A stretch of DNA of 64,000 nucleotides from Patescibacteria group bacterium (lineage in GTDB: Bacteria; Patescibacteriota; Dojkabacteria; J137): assembly GCA_016861265.1 (NCBI GenBank), contig BOLA01000001.1:852136-916135 (forward strand), read 5' to 3'. Position 1 is the stretch's first letter. Each line of letters starts with the position of its first letter. This document shows, piece by piece, positions 4,807 to 56,683 of the stretch. Made by a program: the position numbers and the translations under genes. The notes beneath the pieces are model-generated. The model was not told the DNA's origin. It saw nothing but the letters and a program-made list of their open reading frames with translations, and made no database searches.

Positions 4807-5103
4807 ATGGAATCTGATGTAGTTTTACGAATGTCCGTTCAGATATGGCAATTAATCCAATTATTAGGATTTGGCTGTCTAATTCTGAGCTGGCTGCTAT
4901 TTGCTTATGGGCTTGCCCAAAAGTTGAACGGAAGTAAACGAAAATGGATTAGGACACTATTAGTGTCACTTATGTTCCTTGTGATCTTTGGTATTTCAGT
5001 TTTTATCACAATAACTACGGAGTTGTTTGATGAAAGAACCCAAAGAATGTTCGATGAGAACATAACAATCCCCTTAATTACTGAAGAAAATCAGGGGCAT
5101 TGA
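4807..5103 (+). CDS. small membrane protein (2 TM)
   Basis: A 98-aa ORF with two hydrophobic helices. GGAGG lies upstream (ttatggaggtgttgaATG). Confidence 0.4.
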   Translation: MESDVVLRMSVQIWQLIQLLGFGCLILSWLLFAYGLAQKLNGSKRKWIRTLLVSLMFLVIFGISVFITITTELFDERTQRMFDENITIPLITEENQGH

Positions 5104-32761: not shown

Positions 32762-33070
32762 ATGGCTGTTACACAGCAACAATCAGATACGGTGAGGGTC
32801 AGTGGAATCTCTTGGCTTGAGCGGACATGGTACATGTTGCTTGCACTCATCCGCTCCACTGCCGTTCTGATTTTCGCCATCGGGATTCTTTTAATCGGAG
32901 TTGCGCTTATCTCGGAAAGCAATGTCCGGGTAATCGCCCAAACTGATGAGGAAGGCTGCATCACCTCGGTGTATGCGACCAACCACCCGATGAACGACCA
33001 ATGGGTCGTCCGTATCTGGGGTGATAAACCCGCAGACGATGGCAAGCCCGATCCGCACTTCTGCCACTAG
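32762..33070 (+). CDS. small TM-anchored protein encoded by GC-rich island B
   Basis: A 102-aa, GC-rich ORF with a central TM (LIFAIGILLIGVALI). Its own terminator hairpin lies at about 33076..33100. Confidence 0.45.
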   Translation: MAVTQQQSDTVRVSGISWLERTWYMLLALIRSTAVLIFAIGILLIGVALISESNVRVIAQTDEEGCITSVYATNHPMNDQWVVRIWGDKPADDGKPDPHFCH

Positions 33071-33075
33071 CACAA

Positions 33076-33100
33076 AGGGGGTACTGCTAACAGCACCCCC
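33076..33100 (+). terminator. terminator hairpin after the island B gene 1
   Basis: GGGGGTaCTG-ctaa-CAGcACCCCC. Confidence 0.4.
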
Positions 33101-33176
33101 CAAACTTTTCCAATTTCAATTCTGTATATACTGTTTATATATGTTATAATATATTCAGCACTAAGGAGGTGCACGA

Positions 33177-33482
33177 ATGTTAAAAAAGCTCTTAGTAGTT
33201 ACCCTATTGGCTGTGTTGCTCGGAGTGTTTCCAGTAGCAGCGCAGGAAGACGATTCGCAGGTCAGCGAGTTTACCGTCTACTTGCCTCCATTCTCCGTAG
33301 AATTCTTCTACGCGGACTGGCTGGCTGACGACACTACTTGCCAGTTCTGGGGAACGTCGTTCGGTCTCATGCGTGAGATTGGCGAGCAAATGCCGAAAGC
33401 CTACCGCTTAAATGTGGTGTACGGCGGATGTGGCGTGTTGCGAACGTCAATCTTCACCTACGATGCCAATAGCGAGAAATAA
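33177..33482 (+). CDS. small secreted protein (signal peptide) encoded by GC-rich island B
   Basis: A 101-aa ORF with signal peptide MLKKLLVVTLLAVLLGVFPVAAQ. Upstream are TATAAT at about 33145 and SD AAGGAGG. It is GC-rich. Confidence 0.5.
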   Translation: MLKKLLVVTLLAVLLGVFPVAAQEDDSQVSEFTVYLPPFSVEFFYADWLADDTTCQFWGTSFGLMREIGEQMPKAYRLNVVYGGCGVLRTSIFTYDANSEK

Positions 33483-50412: not shown

Positions 50413-50634
50413 CTAAGCAGCTTGGGATGCAACTAGCTTAATATGATCGTCCATCTGTTGCTTTACATCAGATGAAGCGCACTCATAAGAGCTTGTGTAG
50501 CAATTCTGAGCTTCAAAAAGCTCCATTCCGGCTTCTTCACTGGAACTCCCAGTTCCATGACGCGCCAGTCTTTTTGAACGCTCCTGTGCTTCCACCAGTC
50601 GCTCCCAACATTGCTTCAGTTCTTCAAAGTTCAT
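50413..50634 (-). CDS. small cytoplasmic protein encoded by GC-rich island C
   Basis: A 73-aa, GC-rich ORF with an SD-like GAGGA upstream on the minus strand. It is flanked by hairpins. Confidence 0.4.
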   Translation of the reverse strand: MNFEELKQCWERLVEAQERSKRLARHGTGSSSEEAGMELFEAQNCYTSSYECASSDVKQQMDDHIKLVASQAA

Positions 50635-50709
50635 TGAAAAGTCCTCATGTCTTTACCGTGCCAGGAAGTATATCATTTGTTATTAATTTTAGACAACATT
50701 TGAAGTGTT

Positions 50710-50733
50710 GTGGGCGAGCATTACGCTCGCCCA
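50710..50733 (-). terminator. terminator hairpin immediately after the stop of 50738..51010
   Basis: GTGGGCGAGC-atta-GCTCGCCCAC. Confidence 0.5.
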
Positions 50734-50737
50734 CGGA

Positions 50738-51010
50738 TCACTCCGAAGGCACGTTATTTTTCATGTCTTCGAAGGCAGCTACAATATGCGGCTCGCATTC
50801 TGCGAGCCGCCTTTCCAGTTTCCCATTCTCAGAATCTTTGATTGCCAGAGCCTTTTTGTATTCAAACTCTGGTACCAAATTGATTTTGGTAACTGGATTC
50901 TCATAGCTGTTAATGATTTCCTCAGCAGCAAGTACAAGGCTGTATATGCCGCATAAGCCGACTAACAGCCACATCTCAGCAGCTGTTAACGAGTGCTTTG
51001 CAGATTCCAT
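50738..51010 (-). CDS. small TM-anchored protein encoded by GC-rich island C
   Basis: A 90-aa ORF with a TM (MWLLVGLCGIYSLVLAA). On the minus strand upstream are the promoter TTGCAA-16-TATAAT (about 51043..51070) and SD AGGAG. Confidence 0.45.
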   Translation of the reverse strand: MESAKHSLTAAEMWLLVGLCGIYSLVLAAEEIINSYENPVTKINLVPEFEYKKALAIKDSENGKLERRLAECEPHIVAAFEDMKNNVPSE

Positions 51011-52134: not shown

Positions 52135-52644
52135 TTATAACCAGCTTTGATCAATATTATTTAAGAAGTTGTCGTCCTTGAAAATGTTAAAGCTTTTATT
52201 GTATAGTCTAAATAGTTCAATTGTTGCCTTATAAAAGTCGTTTACTAATTCATGGCTAACCCGGTCAAATGCTTTATCTAGTCTTTCTTCGGCATCTCTA
52301 TGTACAAAAATATTTCTATACTTAATGAGTGAATTCAACCTTTGGTATAGATTATCTTTCTCATGCAATATTTCCTTTGAGTGATATTTTGAGATCTTAG
52401 GTAGGATTATTAACCTATTTTTAATTGAAATTCTTTCTAGGTATTCATAGTTAATAACGTAGGTGTATCCAAAGTCGTTAACAAAACTTTCTAAAGCGAG
52501 CTCAATAAGTATTAAACAATTTATTAGATAAACTTTTCTATGTTCACTAATGTATTTAGAAGATTGTTTCGAGGAGTCTGATTTATTGAACTGCTCTTTG
52601 GCAAGTTCAAGATATTTCTTATATAGTTTTCTATCGGTATTCAA
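52135..52644 (-). CDS. hypothetical protein
   Basis: A 169-aa ORF with no family recognised. Confidence 0.35.
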   Translation of the reverse strand: MNTDRKLYKKYLELAKEQFNKSDSSKQSSKYISEHRKVYLINCLILIELALESFVNDFGYTYVINYEYLERISIKNRLIILPKISKYHSKEILHEKDNLYQRLNSLIKYRNIFVHRDAEERLDKAFDRVSHELVNDFYKATIELFRLYNKSFNIFKDDNFLNNIDQSWL

Positions 52645-52689
52645 TCTAATTAATAATCATGTATTTTTACATTATATCATTCGTTTCTG

Positions 52690-53330
52690 GGGTGTATAAA
52701 ATTGCAAAAGGCGGTCCCTCATAAAGAGAAACCGCCTTCCGCTGCTAACCTTTCGGATCGCAGCTTTCACAGCCTTTCGGCTGTGTGTAGAACCTAGAGT
52801 AAACTCTGGTATCCTAAGCGGGAACCCAACACTTCTGCTGGGAACTGGAATACCTTACCCTAGGTCAGTGAGTGATACCGATACCGAATTTTGTAGCGAG
52901 CAAGCTGCTACAAACCTTCGTCCGCTAATATCGGTATCGTGCCGAATGTGGGGGACACACTCGGCAGTCAATTTTGGTGCCGCATTTCACCGCTTCCTTG
53001 CGAGTGAATGCTGCAAATTGAAAACGTGATTTTCACTTTGCAATATTCAGTTGAGATTTTCGCTCGGTATACAAAGATACCGAGCGGTCCGTTAAGCGTA
53101 TTTCTACGCATTATTCTAGACTTTTCCATCCCCATGTTTTGGTTCAAAGTCCTGACAGGGGCCTTGCCTTGGCTTTCTTTCGAAAGACGGCCTAAATAAA
53201 CTGAATTTACTTAAGTTGTCCTTTGAAATTATGTTGTTAAATGTCTGGGAAGCATTCTATGAATGCTTCCCGCTAGTTCGTGAAAGTCCGGTTCCTCAAT
53301 GAGGACCAGTCAGCACTAACGGGTGGATTT
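52690..53330. ncRNA. GC-rich, highly structured non-coding region (candidate large ncRNA, class undetermined)
   Basis: About 640 nt at about 52% GC with no credible ORF and many perfect stems. These include CACAGCC-tttc-GGCTGTG, TTTGTAGC-gagcaa-GCTGCTACAAA, GATACCGATA...TATCGGTATC (long-range), CGCTCGGTAT-acaaag-ATACCGAGCG, GGGAAGCATTC-tat-GAATGCTTCCC and TCTTTCGAAAGA. It contains GAAAGUCCGG, an RNase P CR-I-like decamer, but in the wrong position for RNase P. Confidence 0.45.
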
Positions 53331-53441
53331 AAATTTTCATTAAATACTTATATCCAACCCACTAGTACATTTAATTTAACGAGCTATAATCATTATATAC
53401 CAAAGCACGCTTAAAGTAAATACTCCTGGGACGCGTTGATT

Positions 53442-53600
53442 TAGTTATAACTCTGCCGCAACCTTATTCGGTAGATATTCCAACAGTAAATTATGTCTAT
53501 CGACTTTATATCGATATCTAACCTTCCCAGTAGGTCTTTGTCTTCTACTGTAGAAACTTACTATACCAAAGGCCACGATTACTGAGACGATTTCGCCCAT
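53442..53600 (-). CDS. possible small Arg-rich TM protein (52 aa). Low confidence.
   Basis: AAGGAG lies 8 nt upstream of the ATG. The ORF reads MGEIVSVIVAFGIVSFYSRRQRPTGKVRYRYKVDRHNLLLEYLPNKVAAEL. It is adjacent to the structured RNA region. Confidence 0.25.
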
Positions 53601-53800
53601 ATAATCTGCTCCTTAAAAATAGTATATATGGTTACTATACAGAGCTGTTGGTTCTTTGTACGTATGCCATACATAGAGATTATATAATATCTTACCCATA
53701 AGTCAATAAACAATGGCGACAAAATTTGCACATAATTTATTATTTAAATAGTTGTGAATTGCTTTACCTGCTATAATAATTCCGTATTAAACAAATTCAA

Positions 53801-55795: not shown

Positions 55796-55817
55796 GATCT
55801 CGCGCTAGCGCGAGATC
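55796..55817 (-). terminator. perfect palindromic hairpin overlapping the stop of 55805..56146
   Basis: GATCTCGCGC-TAGC-GCGCGAGATC, with the stop codon in the loop. Confidence 0.45.
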
Positions 55818-56146
55818 AGCAGGTCGATTCCGTAGCATCCGTAATCCGGATTTTGCGGTTCGGCGTGCGCGAGACTGTGGAATTGCTGCGGCATATTATC
55901 GAGCGGCAAGCAAACCTCATCACCACTTTGAAGGTTAAAGGTTTCGCTTCCTAGAATCACGTCATAGTCCGTGTTGTTGTTGGTACGGAAAATGGCGGTT
56001 TCGCCGGGTTCCACTTCAACAACATAACTGTGACCGATTCCATTCTGGTATTGAATCTTCACGGCCACTTGGGCAGTGGGTGTTCCGAAAACCAGAGCCA
56101 TGAGAATCGACAGTAGCCAGCGAATCAATTCGTACATACGACACAC
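55805..56146 (-). CDS. small secreted protein (signal peptide) encoded by GC-rich island E
   Basis: A 113-aa ORF with signal peptide LIRWLLSILMALVFGTPTAQV. On the minus strand upstream are TTGTAT-16-TATAAT and SD AAGGAG. It is GC-rich. Confidence 0.45.
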   Translation of the reverse strand: MCRMYELIRWLLSILMALVFGTPTAQVAVKIQYQNGIGHSYVVEVEPGETAIFRTNNNTDYDVILGSETFNLQSGDEVCLPLDNMPQQFHSLAHAEPQNPDYGCYGIDLLISR

Positions 56147-56293
56147 TCCTTGCTTTTTAAGTTGCTTTTAATTATAGCACTTATTGCTATATATACAATA
56201 TATACTGGGGTTGGATTGAAGGGAAAGTTTATTATAAAAAGCAATTGGCAGGTTGGGAGTTTTATTTCCCTTCCTGCCAATGTAGTGCGCTAC

Positions 56294-56683
56294 TTACTGT
56301 GCGTCTGCAACAGTGAAGCAGCGTTTGTCGCCGTCAACCTCTCCGCGAGTGTTGAACGGCGCCGGAATCACGAAGCTGCTGACGCAAACCCGATCATCCG
56401 CTGCAATCTGCACCTGCTGGGTATTTACCGTCAGCAAGGCGCCCCCATTGTTACTTTTTACGAAGGTAAACACCGTGTGCGGGGGGCGCACCGGGTACCG
56501 GTCATTCATGCCACTTGCGTGGCTGACCGCGATCTCTGCGTTTGGAACGACAGTGGGTTGCCCCGCCTGTCGAGCCTCGGTGATGATCTGACGAGCCGTA
56601 TTGCGGTACTTTACCGCTAACGCTGCCAGTATCACCAAAATAATCACCAACGCAAGCCGCTTCACTCTCTTGGATTTCTTCAT
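56294..56683 (-). CDS. small membrane-anchored protein encoded by GC-rich island E
   Basis: A 129-aa ORF with an N-terminal KR-rich region plus TM (LALVIILVILAALAV). SD GGAGG and TATAAT lie upstream on the minus strand, and a hairpin lies downstream. The overlapping + ORF 56150..56620 is judged spurious. Confidence 0.45.
   Translation of the reverse strand: MKKSKRVKRLALVIILVILAALAVKYRNTARQIITEARQAGQPTVVPNAEIAVSHASGMNDRYPVRPPHTVFTFVKSNNGGALLTVNTQQVQIAADDRVCVSSFVIPAPFNTRGEVDGDKRCFTVADAQ

Follow-up and report, generated by a model that had tools for sequence, protein, structure and literature searches.

Large structured bacterial RNAs of unknown function are few, the examples being OLE, GOLLD, ROOL and raiA. 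The biology of the Candidate Phyla Radiation has been inferred largely from protein genes, and we know of no large structured RNA of unknown function described from this group. Here, we analyse a GC-rich island at positions 52690-53330 of a 64,000-nt stretch of contig BOLA01000001.1, from a Dojkabacteria-like Patescibacterium; the whole stretch is referred to as the window, all positions are those of the window unless another locus is named, and homologous loci are labelled L001-L100. There is little doubt that the island is an independent RNA gene of the minus strand, running from promoter to terminator, with three locally folded domains, and that it represents a family not present in Rfam and organised as an expandable array.

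In size the RNA resembles the class of OLE (with its protein OapA), ROOL, GOLLD and raiA; like these, it has a gene of its own, 0.6-1 kb long, and many of its helices are capped by GNRA loops. As in the OLE/OapA class, it has its own promoter and terminator and adjoins a membrane protein gene on the same strand, and as in GOLLD a conserved part is combined with a variable part. However, it does not match the Rfam models of OLE, ROOL, GOLLD or raiA and occurs in one narrow clade of Patescibacteria. The adjoining gene encodes a 51-aa single-helix peptide rather than OapA and, unlike in the OLE class, most of the RNA is not conserved, and modules headed by a hairpin come and go between strains.

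A similar layout is found in type III toxin-antitoxin systems and in the AbiF system, where a HEPN-family toxin is neutralised by the upstream non-coding RNA RCd22 (PMC12373285). In these systems, as here, a structured non-coding RNA, a terminator and an RNase-type gene lie on one strand, and the protein encoded here belongs, like AbiF, to the HEPN superfamily. Nevertheless, the RNA is 3-8 times larger than its counterparts in these systems and it lacks both the abiF motif and the ToxI-like tandem repeats of 34-36 nt; repeats of the ToxIN, CptIN or TenpIN type were rejected, the sole repeat being an AU-rich hairpin present in 1-4 copies with 160-400 nt of unrelated sequence between them. The candidate toxin is a minimal HEPN domain and not ToxN/AbiQ or Abi_2, and in one relative, L100, the RNA persists without the HEPN gene.

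The locus also recalls CRISPR arrays and arrays of the TIGR-Tas family (PMC12045711), since a leader with the promoter precedes repeats of about 27-40 nt, partly palindromic, that part strain-variable units, the variable units being leader-proximal and the conserved unit lying at the far end. In contrast to these arrays, the units are highly structured and 160-400 nt long instead of spacers of 30-40 nt or TIGR units of 36 nt with dual spacers, and only 1-4 repeats are present; a CRISPR array would alternate repeats of 23-47 nt with spacers of 21-72 nt. Nothing cas-like was found among the open reading frames (ORFs) and the Pfam-labelled called genes, and the neighbours are not Tas-like, so that both assignments were rejected.

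The GC content of the island is 0.41-0.50 over positions 52700-53300, as against about 0.27-0.35 in the flanks and about 0.33 in the genome. The longest ORF overlapping 52690-53330 is 63 aa long, no conserved ORF was found in the island, and the conserved core described below is interrupted by stops in every reading frame in all six lineages. Compared with dinucleotide shuffles, positions 52690-53330 fold with z-scores of -8.6 on the plus strand and -10.6 on the minus strand, and the full-length predicted transcript reaches -14.3 on its sense strand, while native coding controls gave -0.7 and +0.5. The original prediction of a GC-rich, structured region free of credible ORFs is borne out by these values. 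All of the stems listed in it were located, including perfect hairpins of 10-11 bp at 53247-53271 and 53061-53086, and so was the long-range pairing of GATACCGATA with TATCGGTATC (52874-52883 with 52929-52938).

The RNA is encoded on the minus strand, as evidenced by GNRA loops, stems that depend on G·U pairs, an intrinsic terminator that exists only on this strand and a conserved sigma-70 promoter. The hairpin loops taken in the original prediction for UUCG-like ones are in reality GAAA loops of the GNRA type on the minus strand, which appear as UUUC on the plus strand; the plus-strand reading was thus antisense. In minimum free energy (MFE) folds of five homologous loci GNRA loops are nearly confined to the sense strand, with one antisense exception in L083, and the sense strand is 17-56 kcal/mol more stable than the antisense. 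Several stems, that of the terminator included, use G·U pairs which become A·C mismatches on the plus strand. From the promoter, the terminator and the strand asymmetry we infer a transcript of about 690 nt extending on the minus strand from about 53385 to 52694, as a single transcription unit driven by the conserved promoter. The island was placed correctly at 52690-53330, except that its probable start near 53385 lies about 55 nt past this range. The RNA does occupy the gap between a hypothetical gene and lepA, although a conserved 51-aa ORF lies between the RNA and lepA. The parts of the RNA gene, in the order of transcription, are the following:

53392-53420, minus strand: sigma-70-type promoter of the RNA, TTTACT-17-TATAAT, with the probable start near 53385
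53219-53385, minus strand: 5' leader domain, with the conserved AUAGCUCGUUAAAUUAAAUGUACU, a long hairpin, UAGUGCUGAC, GGACUUU and the perfect 11-bp hairpin at 53247-53271 (z-score -5.3)
53001-53218, minus strand: conserved core of 218 nt with seven helices and 68 bp, containing the conserved CUGUCAGGAC...CCAAAACAUGGRG
53192-53214, minus strand: AU-rich hairpin repeat, which is helix P1 of the core, CUUAAGUAAAU-loop-GUUUAUUUAGG, where UUAAGUAAAU pairs with GUUUAUUUAG (10 modelled pairs), after a conserved linker UUUYAARG
52743-53000, minus strand: species-specific 3' domain of GC-rich hairpins, GAUACCGAUAU/GUAUCGGUAUC, GCCGAGUGUG/CACAUUCGGC and CACAGCC-GAAA-GGCUGUG
52694-52742, minus strand: intrinsic terminator, with a stem of 15-17 bp (52742-52704) containing minus-only U·G pairs, followed by the U-tract UUUUGCAAUUUU

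The core comprises, in order, the AU hairpin P1, the GC hairpin P2, the CYCC/GGRG helix P3 around UGUCAGGAC...CCAAAACAU, the nested helices P4-P5, the 10-bp hairpin P6 and the long AU-rich helix P7. An alignment made with MAFFT and RNAalifold misaligned P4-P6; a structure derived by hand from the window sequence was therefore used to build a covariance model (R1), to which the homologues were realigned, giving a core alignment of seven sequences from about six lineages. Each lineage of the clade yields the core with R1, at 49-276 bits: the window core scores 275.7 bits with R1 and 236 bits with a rebuilt model, R2, and the cores of five other lineages score 49-185 bits. In the seven-sequence alignment 98.4% of the 430 cells are standard pairs, and 31 of the 68 core pairs carry changes on both sides, compared with 11.4±2.4 in column shuffles, none of which (0/500) reaches the observed number. 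When the 3' partners are slid by 1-3 columns, only 0-5 pairs with two-sided changes are left and pairing falls to 31-46%. Covariation is seen at nearly all positions of P5 and P6, and two pairs of the AU-rich hairpin covary. Judged from this alignment, the core structure is under selection, and the window carries the complete 218-nt core by which the proposed new family is defined.

The promoter in L099, L100 and L083 reads TTGACT-16/17-TATAAT followed by a conserved RGATATAG, at the same position as in the window, and the -35 and -10 elements are kept in four lineages. An equivalent terminator closes the locus in L099, L092, L086, L100 and L083. The leader is common to the window, its close relative L001, L099 and L100, to the last two of which the window leader is homologous, while the 5' region of L083 is unlike it. 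The window and L001 differ by four substitutions in stems, none of which disrupts pairing; one of them is a double change in the leader hairpin, in which GGUCCUC...GAGGAACC of the window corresponds to GAUCCUC...GAGGCAUC of L001, a G-C pair being replaced by A-U. The 3' domain folds better on the sense strand (z-score -6.0) than on the antisense (-3.3), and no homologue of its approximately 260 nt was found outside this species among the related loci compared. A different 3' module is common to L085, L086, L092 and L100 and does not occur in the window. The conserved portion thus consists of leader and core only, about 385 nt.

Three further details concern these domains. The loop of the perfect 11-bp palindrome at 53247-53271 (53258-53260) is AUA in the window and UAU in L001; the change is an inversion of the hairpin, as by template switching, and not a set of point mutations. 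In the MFE fold of the minus strand the leader GGACUUU (53283-53289), the antisense of the RNase P-like decamer considered below, pairs with the core AAAGUCU (53118-53124); this pairing, which is also possible in L099, competes with the covariation-backed helix P4a and could be an alternative conformation or a leader-core contact. Finally, the shared 3' module contains AAGGAGGUG, a perfect Shine-Dalgarno sequence, beside a conserved hairpin (L086 at about 375-400, L092 at about 425-450). In L086 it precedes an AUG and a 7-codon mini-ORF, which is not so in L092, and the module could be a ribosome-binding mimic.

The locus does not encode a monolithic RNA but is an array whose modules vary. Between leader and core, 0-3 extra modules are inserted per locus, each led by a copy of the AU-rich hairpin, so that the number of hairpin copies varies from 1 to 4. 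This repeat reads CUUAAGUAAAU-loop-GUUUAUUUAAG, is preceded by a conserved UUUUAARG linker and measures about 40 nt in all. The window has no extra module, L001 and L099 have one each (about 310 and 330 nt), L087 has at least one and L100 has three. In the latter locus (L100 1374-2215) there are four copies of the hairpin and three unique modules, and the terminator directly adjoins the mraY-like gene. No sequence homology was detected among the extra modules beyond the hairpin repeat, although the extra modules fold with z-scores of -3.1 to -9.1 and all modules with -2.9 to -9.5. The window and L001, strains that are 98% identical, differ by exactly one module, and the junction in the window is a hybrid of two L001 repeats, which indicates recombination between repeats. 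Several contigs end at module borders within the locus, which agrees with heterogeneous populations. The original prediction of a large structured non-coding RNA stands, with the qualification that only leader and core are conserved and the locus as a whole is modular.

The model R2 scores 18.6-35 bits on variable modules, much of it from the shared hairpin, with full-length matches of 20-35 bits (L098 780-1002; L100 1371-1628 and 1988-2176; L001 1651-1929). The modules may be paralogues of the core at a great distance, unless the hairpin accounts for most of the score. A variable module of L099 (6815-6855, minus strand) contains a 19-nt tandem duplication of AGGTTAAGTCGAATTCGAT, which pairs with the downstream GATCAATTCGACTTAAC. 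Repeats common to this island and the other GC-rich islands of the window were not found.

Searches of Rfam 15 gave no known family. At gathering score, the only matches in the window were two tRNAs, both outside the island; at E<=10, both strands of positions 52400-53600 yielded only chance microRNA and snoRNA matches; and at E<=1 six related loci yielded one chance terminator match. Models of OLE, ROOL, GOLLD, raiA, HEARO and other large non-coding RNAs gave nothing at E<=10 in the island or at E<=1 in the six loci. Transfer-messenger RNA (tmRNA), signal recognition particle (SRP) RNA and 6S RNA were rejected, as none has an Rfam match here and ARAGORN found no tmRNA. The locus bears a single likeness to bacterial RNase P RNA, namely 10 nt of the plus strand that match the CR-I core. 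This decamer, GAAAGTCCGG, is indeed present at 53282-53291 as was originally noted. However, it is antisense to the RNA and is not kept in the nearest strain, since the 98%-identical L001 has TAAAGTCCGA, which differs at two positions. There is also no sign of P4 or CR-V, and the RNase P covariance models, which include CR-I to CR-V and the P4 pseudoknot, do not match either strand at gathering score or at E<=10. The view that the island is not RNase P, tmRNA or SRP RNA thus holds, neither strand matching a housekeeping or any other family, and a novel large structured non-coding RNA of unknown class is supported both by these negatives (Rfam 15 and ARAGORN) and by the strong covariation of the core.

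Other classes of element were considered and rejected. A riboswitch or cis-regulatory leader does not agree with the RNA having its own promoter and terminator and the downstream gene its own promoter, and no cis-regulatory family of Rfam matched. In an integron cassette array R'' and R' boxes of the forms RYYYAAC and GTTRRRY would be expected, which CTTAAGTAAAT...GTTTATTTAAG does not fit by inspection, without a dedicated attC model, and no integrase is encoded in the window or the related loci. Group I and II introns and retrons were ruled out on unit size, missing proteins or missing Rfam matches, and AbiF on the lack of a match to the abiF motif and on a protein that is not Abi_2. The locus is thus a candidate new RNA family, its architecture having been matched to no described system that we found.

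Two Logan contigs, L001 with 96-98% identical DNA and L002 with identical DNA, encode exactly the LepA protein of the window. Among GTDB genomes the closest, one Dojkabacteria metagenome-assembled genome (MAG) and one Patescibacteria MAG, have a LepA identity of 76% and lack both a GC-rich island and synteny around lepA. Further loci were reached via homologues of a 169-aa protein encoded downstream of the RNA (63-99% identity) and of the 51-aa ORF; they represent at least five other lineages (L083, L085/L098/L099, L086, L087, L092, L097 and L100). The gene order in these relatives is lepA, the small ORF, the GC-rich gap, the 169-aa gene where present, and the mraY-like gene. A chimeric assembly is excluded because independent assemblies from many samples agree. 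Among the samples in which this organism occurs are SRR28413663, DRR258782, SRR29675977, SRR28019980 and JGI Ga0163148/Ga0163154. R2 had no match in 1.3 Mb of sequence comprising 80 lepA loci of other taxa, a metagenome scan with the core pattern returned only two contigs of the same species as L085, and a scan of viral contigs with the same pattern returned none. One viral match to the hairpin pattern, within a protein-coding ORF of a 238-kb IMG/VR contig, was rejected by the covariance model, and BLAST of the island against phage and plasmid collections gave only matches of about 26-38 nt with E values of 0.2-0.8. All loci of the family seen so far belong to a single genus-level clade of Dojkabacteria-like Patescibacteria.

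The RNA gene is flanked by a small ORF and by the gene of the 169-aa protein, which has a HEPN fold, and other GC-rich islands occur in the window:

53679-53706, minus strand: promoter-like site of the small ORF, TTGACT-16-TATAAT, 11/12 matches
53445-53600, minus strand: 51-aa ORF with an N-terminal hydrophobic helix, an Arg/Lys-rich tail and the Shine-Dalgarno sequence AAGGAG
52135-52644, minus strand: 169-aa HEPN-fold gene, with an invariant RNIFVH (Rx4H) and its own extended -10 element TGATATAAT
32762-33482, 50413-51010, 53445-53600 and 55805-56683: GC-rich islands with small genes

The 51-aa ORF (53600-53445) lies between the RNA and lepA, is 65-90% identical among relatives and is present in every complete related locus; its tail has a net charge of about +6. 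It is upstream of the RNA and on the same strand in the window, L001, L097, L083, L098/L099 and L100, and the stretch from it to the RNA promoter showed no terminator. Like the other island genes, it has a strong Shine-Dalgarno sequence and raised GC content. Of the small island proteins which the original prediction put forward as possible partners of the RNA, this one is always encoded immediately before the RNA. The HEPN gene is found downstream of the RNA in most related loci and is precisely absent in L100, which retains the small ORF and the largest RNA array. With about 30% GC, no Shine-Dalgarno sequence and its own promoter it resembles native genes, and Pfam assigns its product a weak match to DUF3644, not to Abi_2. 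The RNA is no more complementary to the region where translation of the small ORF or of the HEPN gene starts than it is to shuffled targets. In L093, the most distant relative with both genes (LepA 85% and HEPN 73% identical), lepA and the HEPN gene are divided by a scaffold gap of Ns (650-702), and sister contigs end 22-62 nt upstream of the HEPN gene.

A strong Shine-Dalgarno sequence precedes all seven small genes of the GC-rich islands but only one of 35 ORFs of at least 200 aa, as scored upstream of the first ATG. These islands also bear near-consensus sigma-70 promoters and hairpin terminators, and they look like a separate class of transcription units, probably highly expressed or foreign-derived. 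The small proteins encoded at 50413-51010 and 55805-56683 have signal peptides or transmembrane helices and are syntenic in L083, L085, L086, L092 and L098 at only 27-51% identity, while LepA, PrfB and the MraY-like protein are 79-91% identical across the same relatives; by this comparison they are real genes that evolve very fast. PADLOC and Pfam found nothing significant in any of the small island proteins. The mRNAs of two island genes are unusually structured (56294-56683, minus strand, z-score -4.5; 33177-33482, plus strand, z-score -3.3).

With respect to function, our tentative preference is that the RNA acts as such and not as a cis-regulatory leader. It may be a stable, abundant, protein-binding scaffold that is co-expressed, and probably co-transcribed, with the membrane-anchored 51-aa protein, a possibility to which we give a similar, limited weight, and the AU hairpin repeats could, with about the same reservation, be recognition or processing sites that separate the modules. 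These three proposals are not mutually exclusive. The Arg/Lys-rich tail of the small protein would tether the RNA at the membrane, by the same logic as in OLE RNA with OapA. The scaffold and the small protein are favoured together because the small ORF is always linked upstream on the same strand without a detected terminator between them, because both share the island-type signals, and because L100 keeps the small ORF and an enlarged array without the HEPN gene. Taken whole, the statement comprising the RNA gene and the inferences on scaffold, small protein and processing is held with moderate confidence. Several points weigh against it. The start of transcription, the existence of one transcript and any processing are read from sequence signals, and in L083 a terminator-like hairpin with a U-run lies within the array at about 5040-5075, so that the locus may yield more than one RNA. 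The count of 31 covarying pairs comes from a small alignment that was fitted by a covariance model to our own structure, and such numbers lean towards that structure, although the margin is large. A basic juxtamembrane tail is also a feature of ordinary membrane topology, and RNA binding by the small protein is putative. Lastly, a mostly non-conserved sequence is odd for a single fixed scaffold and would better fit a role in conflict or defence.

The main rival is an antitoxin explanation, according to which the RNA controls the downstream HEPN RNase in the manner of type III or AbiF systems: the core would probably neutralise the HEPN protein, the terminator would set the ratio of RNA to toxin, and the modules would reflect an arms race with phages. 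In all loci with sequence available upstream of the HEPN gene, the RNA immediately precedes it, RNA, terminator and toxin share one strand as in type III systems, no protein antitoxin gene adjoins, hypervariability is typical of conflict systems, and AbiF/RCd22 provides an experimental precedent (PMC12373285). Nevertheless, we consider this explanation rather unlikely, as the largest form of the RNA, which has four modules led by hairpins, is retained in L100, where the HEPN gene is precisely missing. Moreover, the HEPN gene is native-like while the RNA and the small ORF are of the island type, and the high conservation of its product contrasts with a mostly non-conserved RNA. The protein goes unrecognised by PADLOC models, and neither short ToxI-like tandem repeats nor an abiF motif is present. 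Somewhat more doubtful is an RNA-level cassette array, in which the leader promoter would give one precursor and the AU hairpins would delimit modules that are cut into separate functional RNAs. Such modules could act as decoys or binders of an aptamer-like kind, in conflict between phage and host or between epibiont and host, new ones entering next to the leader while the ancestral core stays fixed at the far end, a diversification like that of CRISPR or integrons but of structured RNAs instead of spacers or genes.

The same variability could be explained at the level of DNA, if the AU hairpin were a recombination site of the attC, IS200/IS605 or REP kind and the RNA structure were secondary or a property of captured pieces. 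In agreement with this, whole modules are gained or lost exactly at the repeats between 98%-identical strains, the hairpin copy number ranges from 1 to 4, the variable units are leader-proximal with the conserved unit at the far end, several contigs break at module borders, and strains differ in the orientation of the loop of a perfect palindrome. However, homologous recombination between repeats of 40-55 nt suffices for the insertions and deletions, no integrase, transposase or HUH enzyme of the IS200/IS605 type is encoded nearby in the window or in related loci, and the hairpin by inspection misfits the attC R'/R'' boxes. That selection acts on the RNA is supported by its strand-asymmetric folding, by stems that depend on G·U pairs and by GNRA loops, and all of the non-homologous modules are structured far beyond chance, which is unexpected for randomly captured DNA, so that this explanation is improbable. 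An origin as an untranslated region (UTR), either a 3' UTR acting on the stability or translation of the small-ORF mRNA or, for the HEPN gene, a 5' leader or attenuator, is slightly less probable still. Read-through from the small ORF is likely given that no terminator was detected between it and the RNA, and the RNA terminator is placed just upstream of the HEPN gene; yet a conserved near-consensus promoter separates the small ORF from the RNA, and the HEPN gene, which L100 lacks, is served by a promoter of its own. The complementarity to the translation start of either gene does not exceed that of shuffled controls, no riboswitch or leader family matches, and known leaders or UTR elements fall far short of a locus of 0.7-1.6 kb with exchangeable modules. 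It is hardly credible that the island is RNase P, tmRNA, SRP or 6S RNA in a divergent form, or the remains of a protein-coding gene, to which the decamer GAAAGUCCGG at 53282-53291 of the plus strand and the resemblance to neighbouring GC-rich islands encoding small proteins might point. Apart from the failure of Rfam at E<=10 and of ARAGORN, and from a decamer that is antisense and mutated at two positions in the nearest strain, a module number that varies between strains and the absence of the locus beside lepA in the relatives with 76% LepA identity are unlike housekeeping RNAs. As to a pseudogene, stops occur in all frames in all lineages, and the substitutions preserve pairing, not codons.

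The RNA of this Dojkabacteria-like clade offers a compact 218-nt core with clear covariation, which is suited to studies of structure and binding. Its evolution is unusual in that whole RNA modules, non-homologous yet strongly folded and all led by the same hairpin, are exchanged between strains that are nearly identical. Should the modules be processed and functional, this would be a new bacterial route to diversify an RNA repertoire, and if the RNA neutralises the HEPN RNase, RNA-antitoxin control of HEPN toxins would extend to a new and much larger type of RNA.

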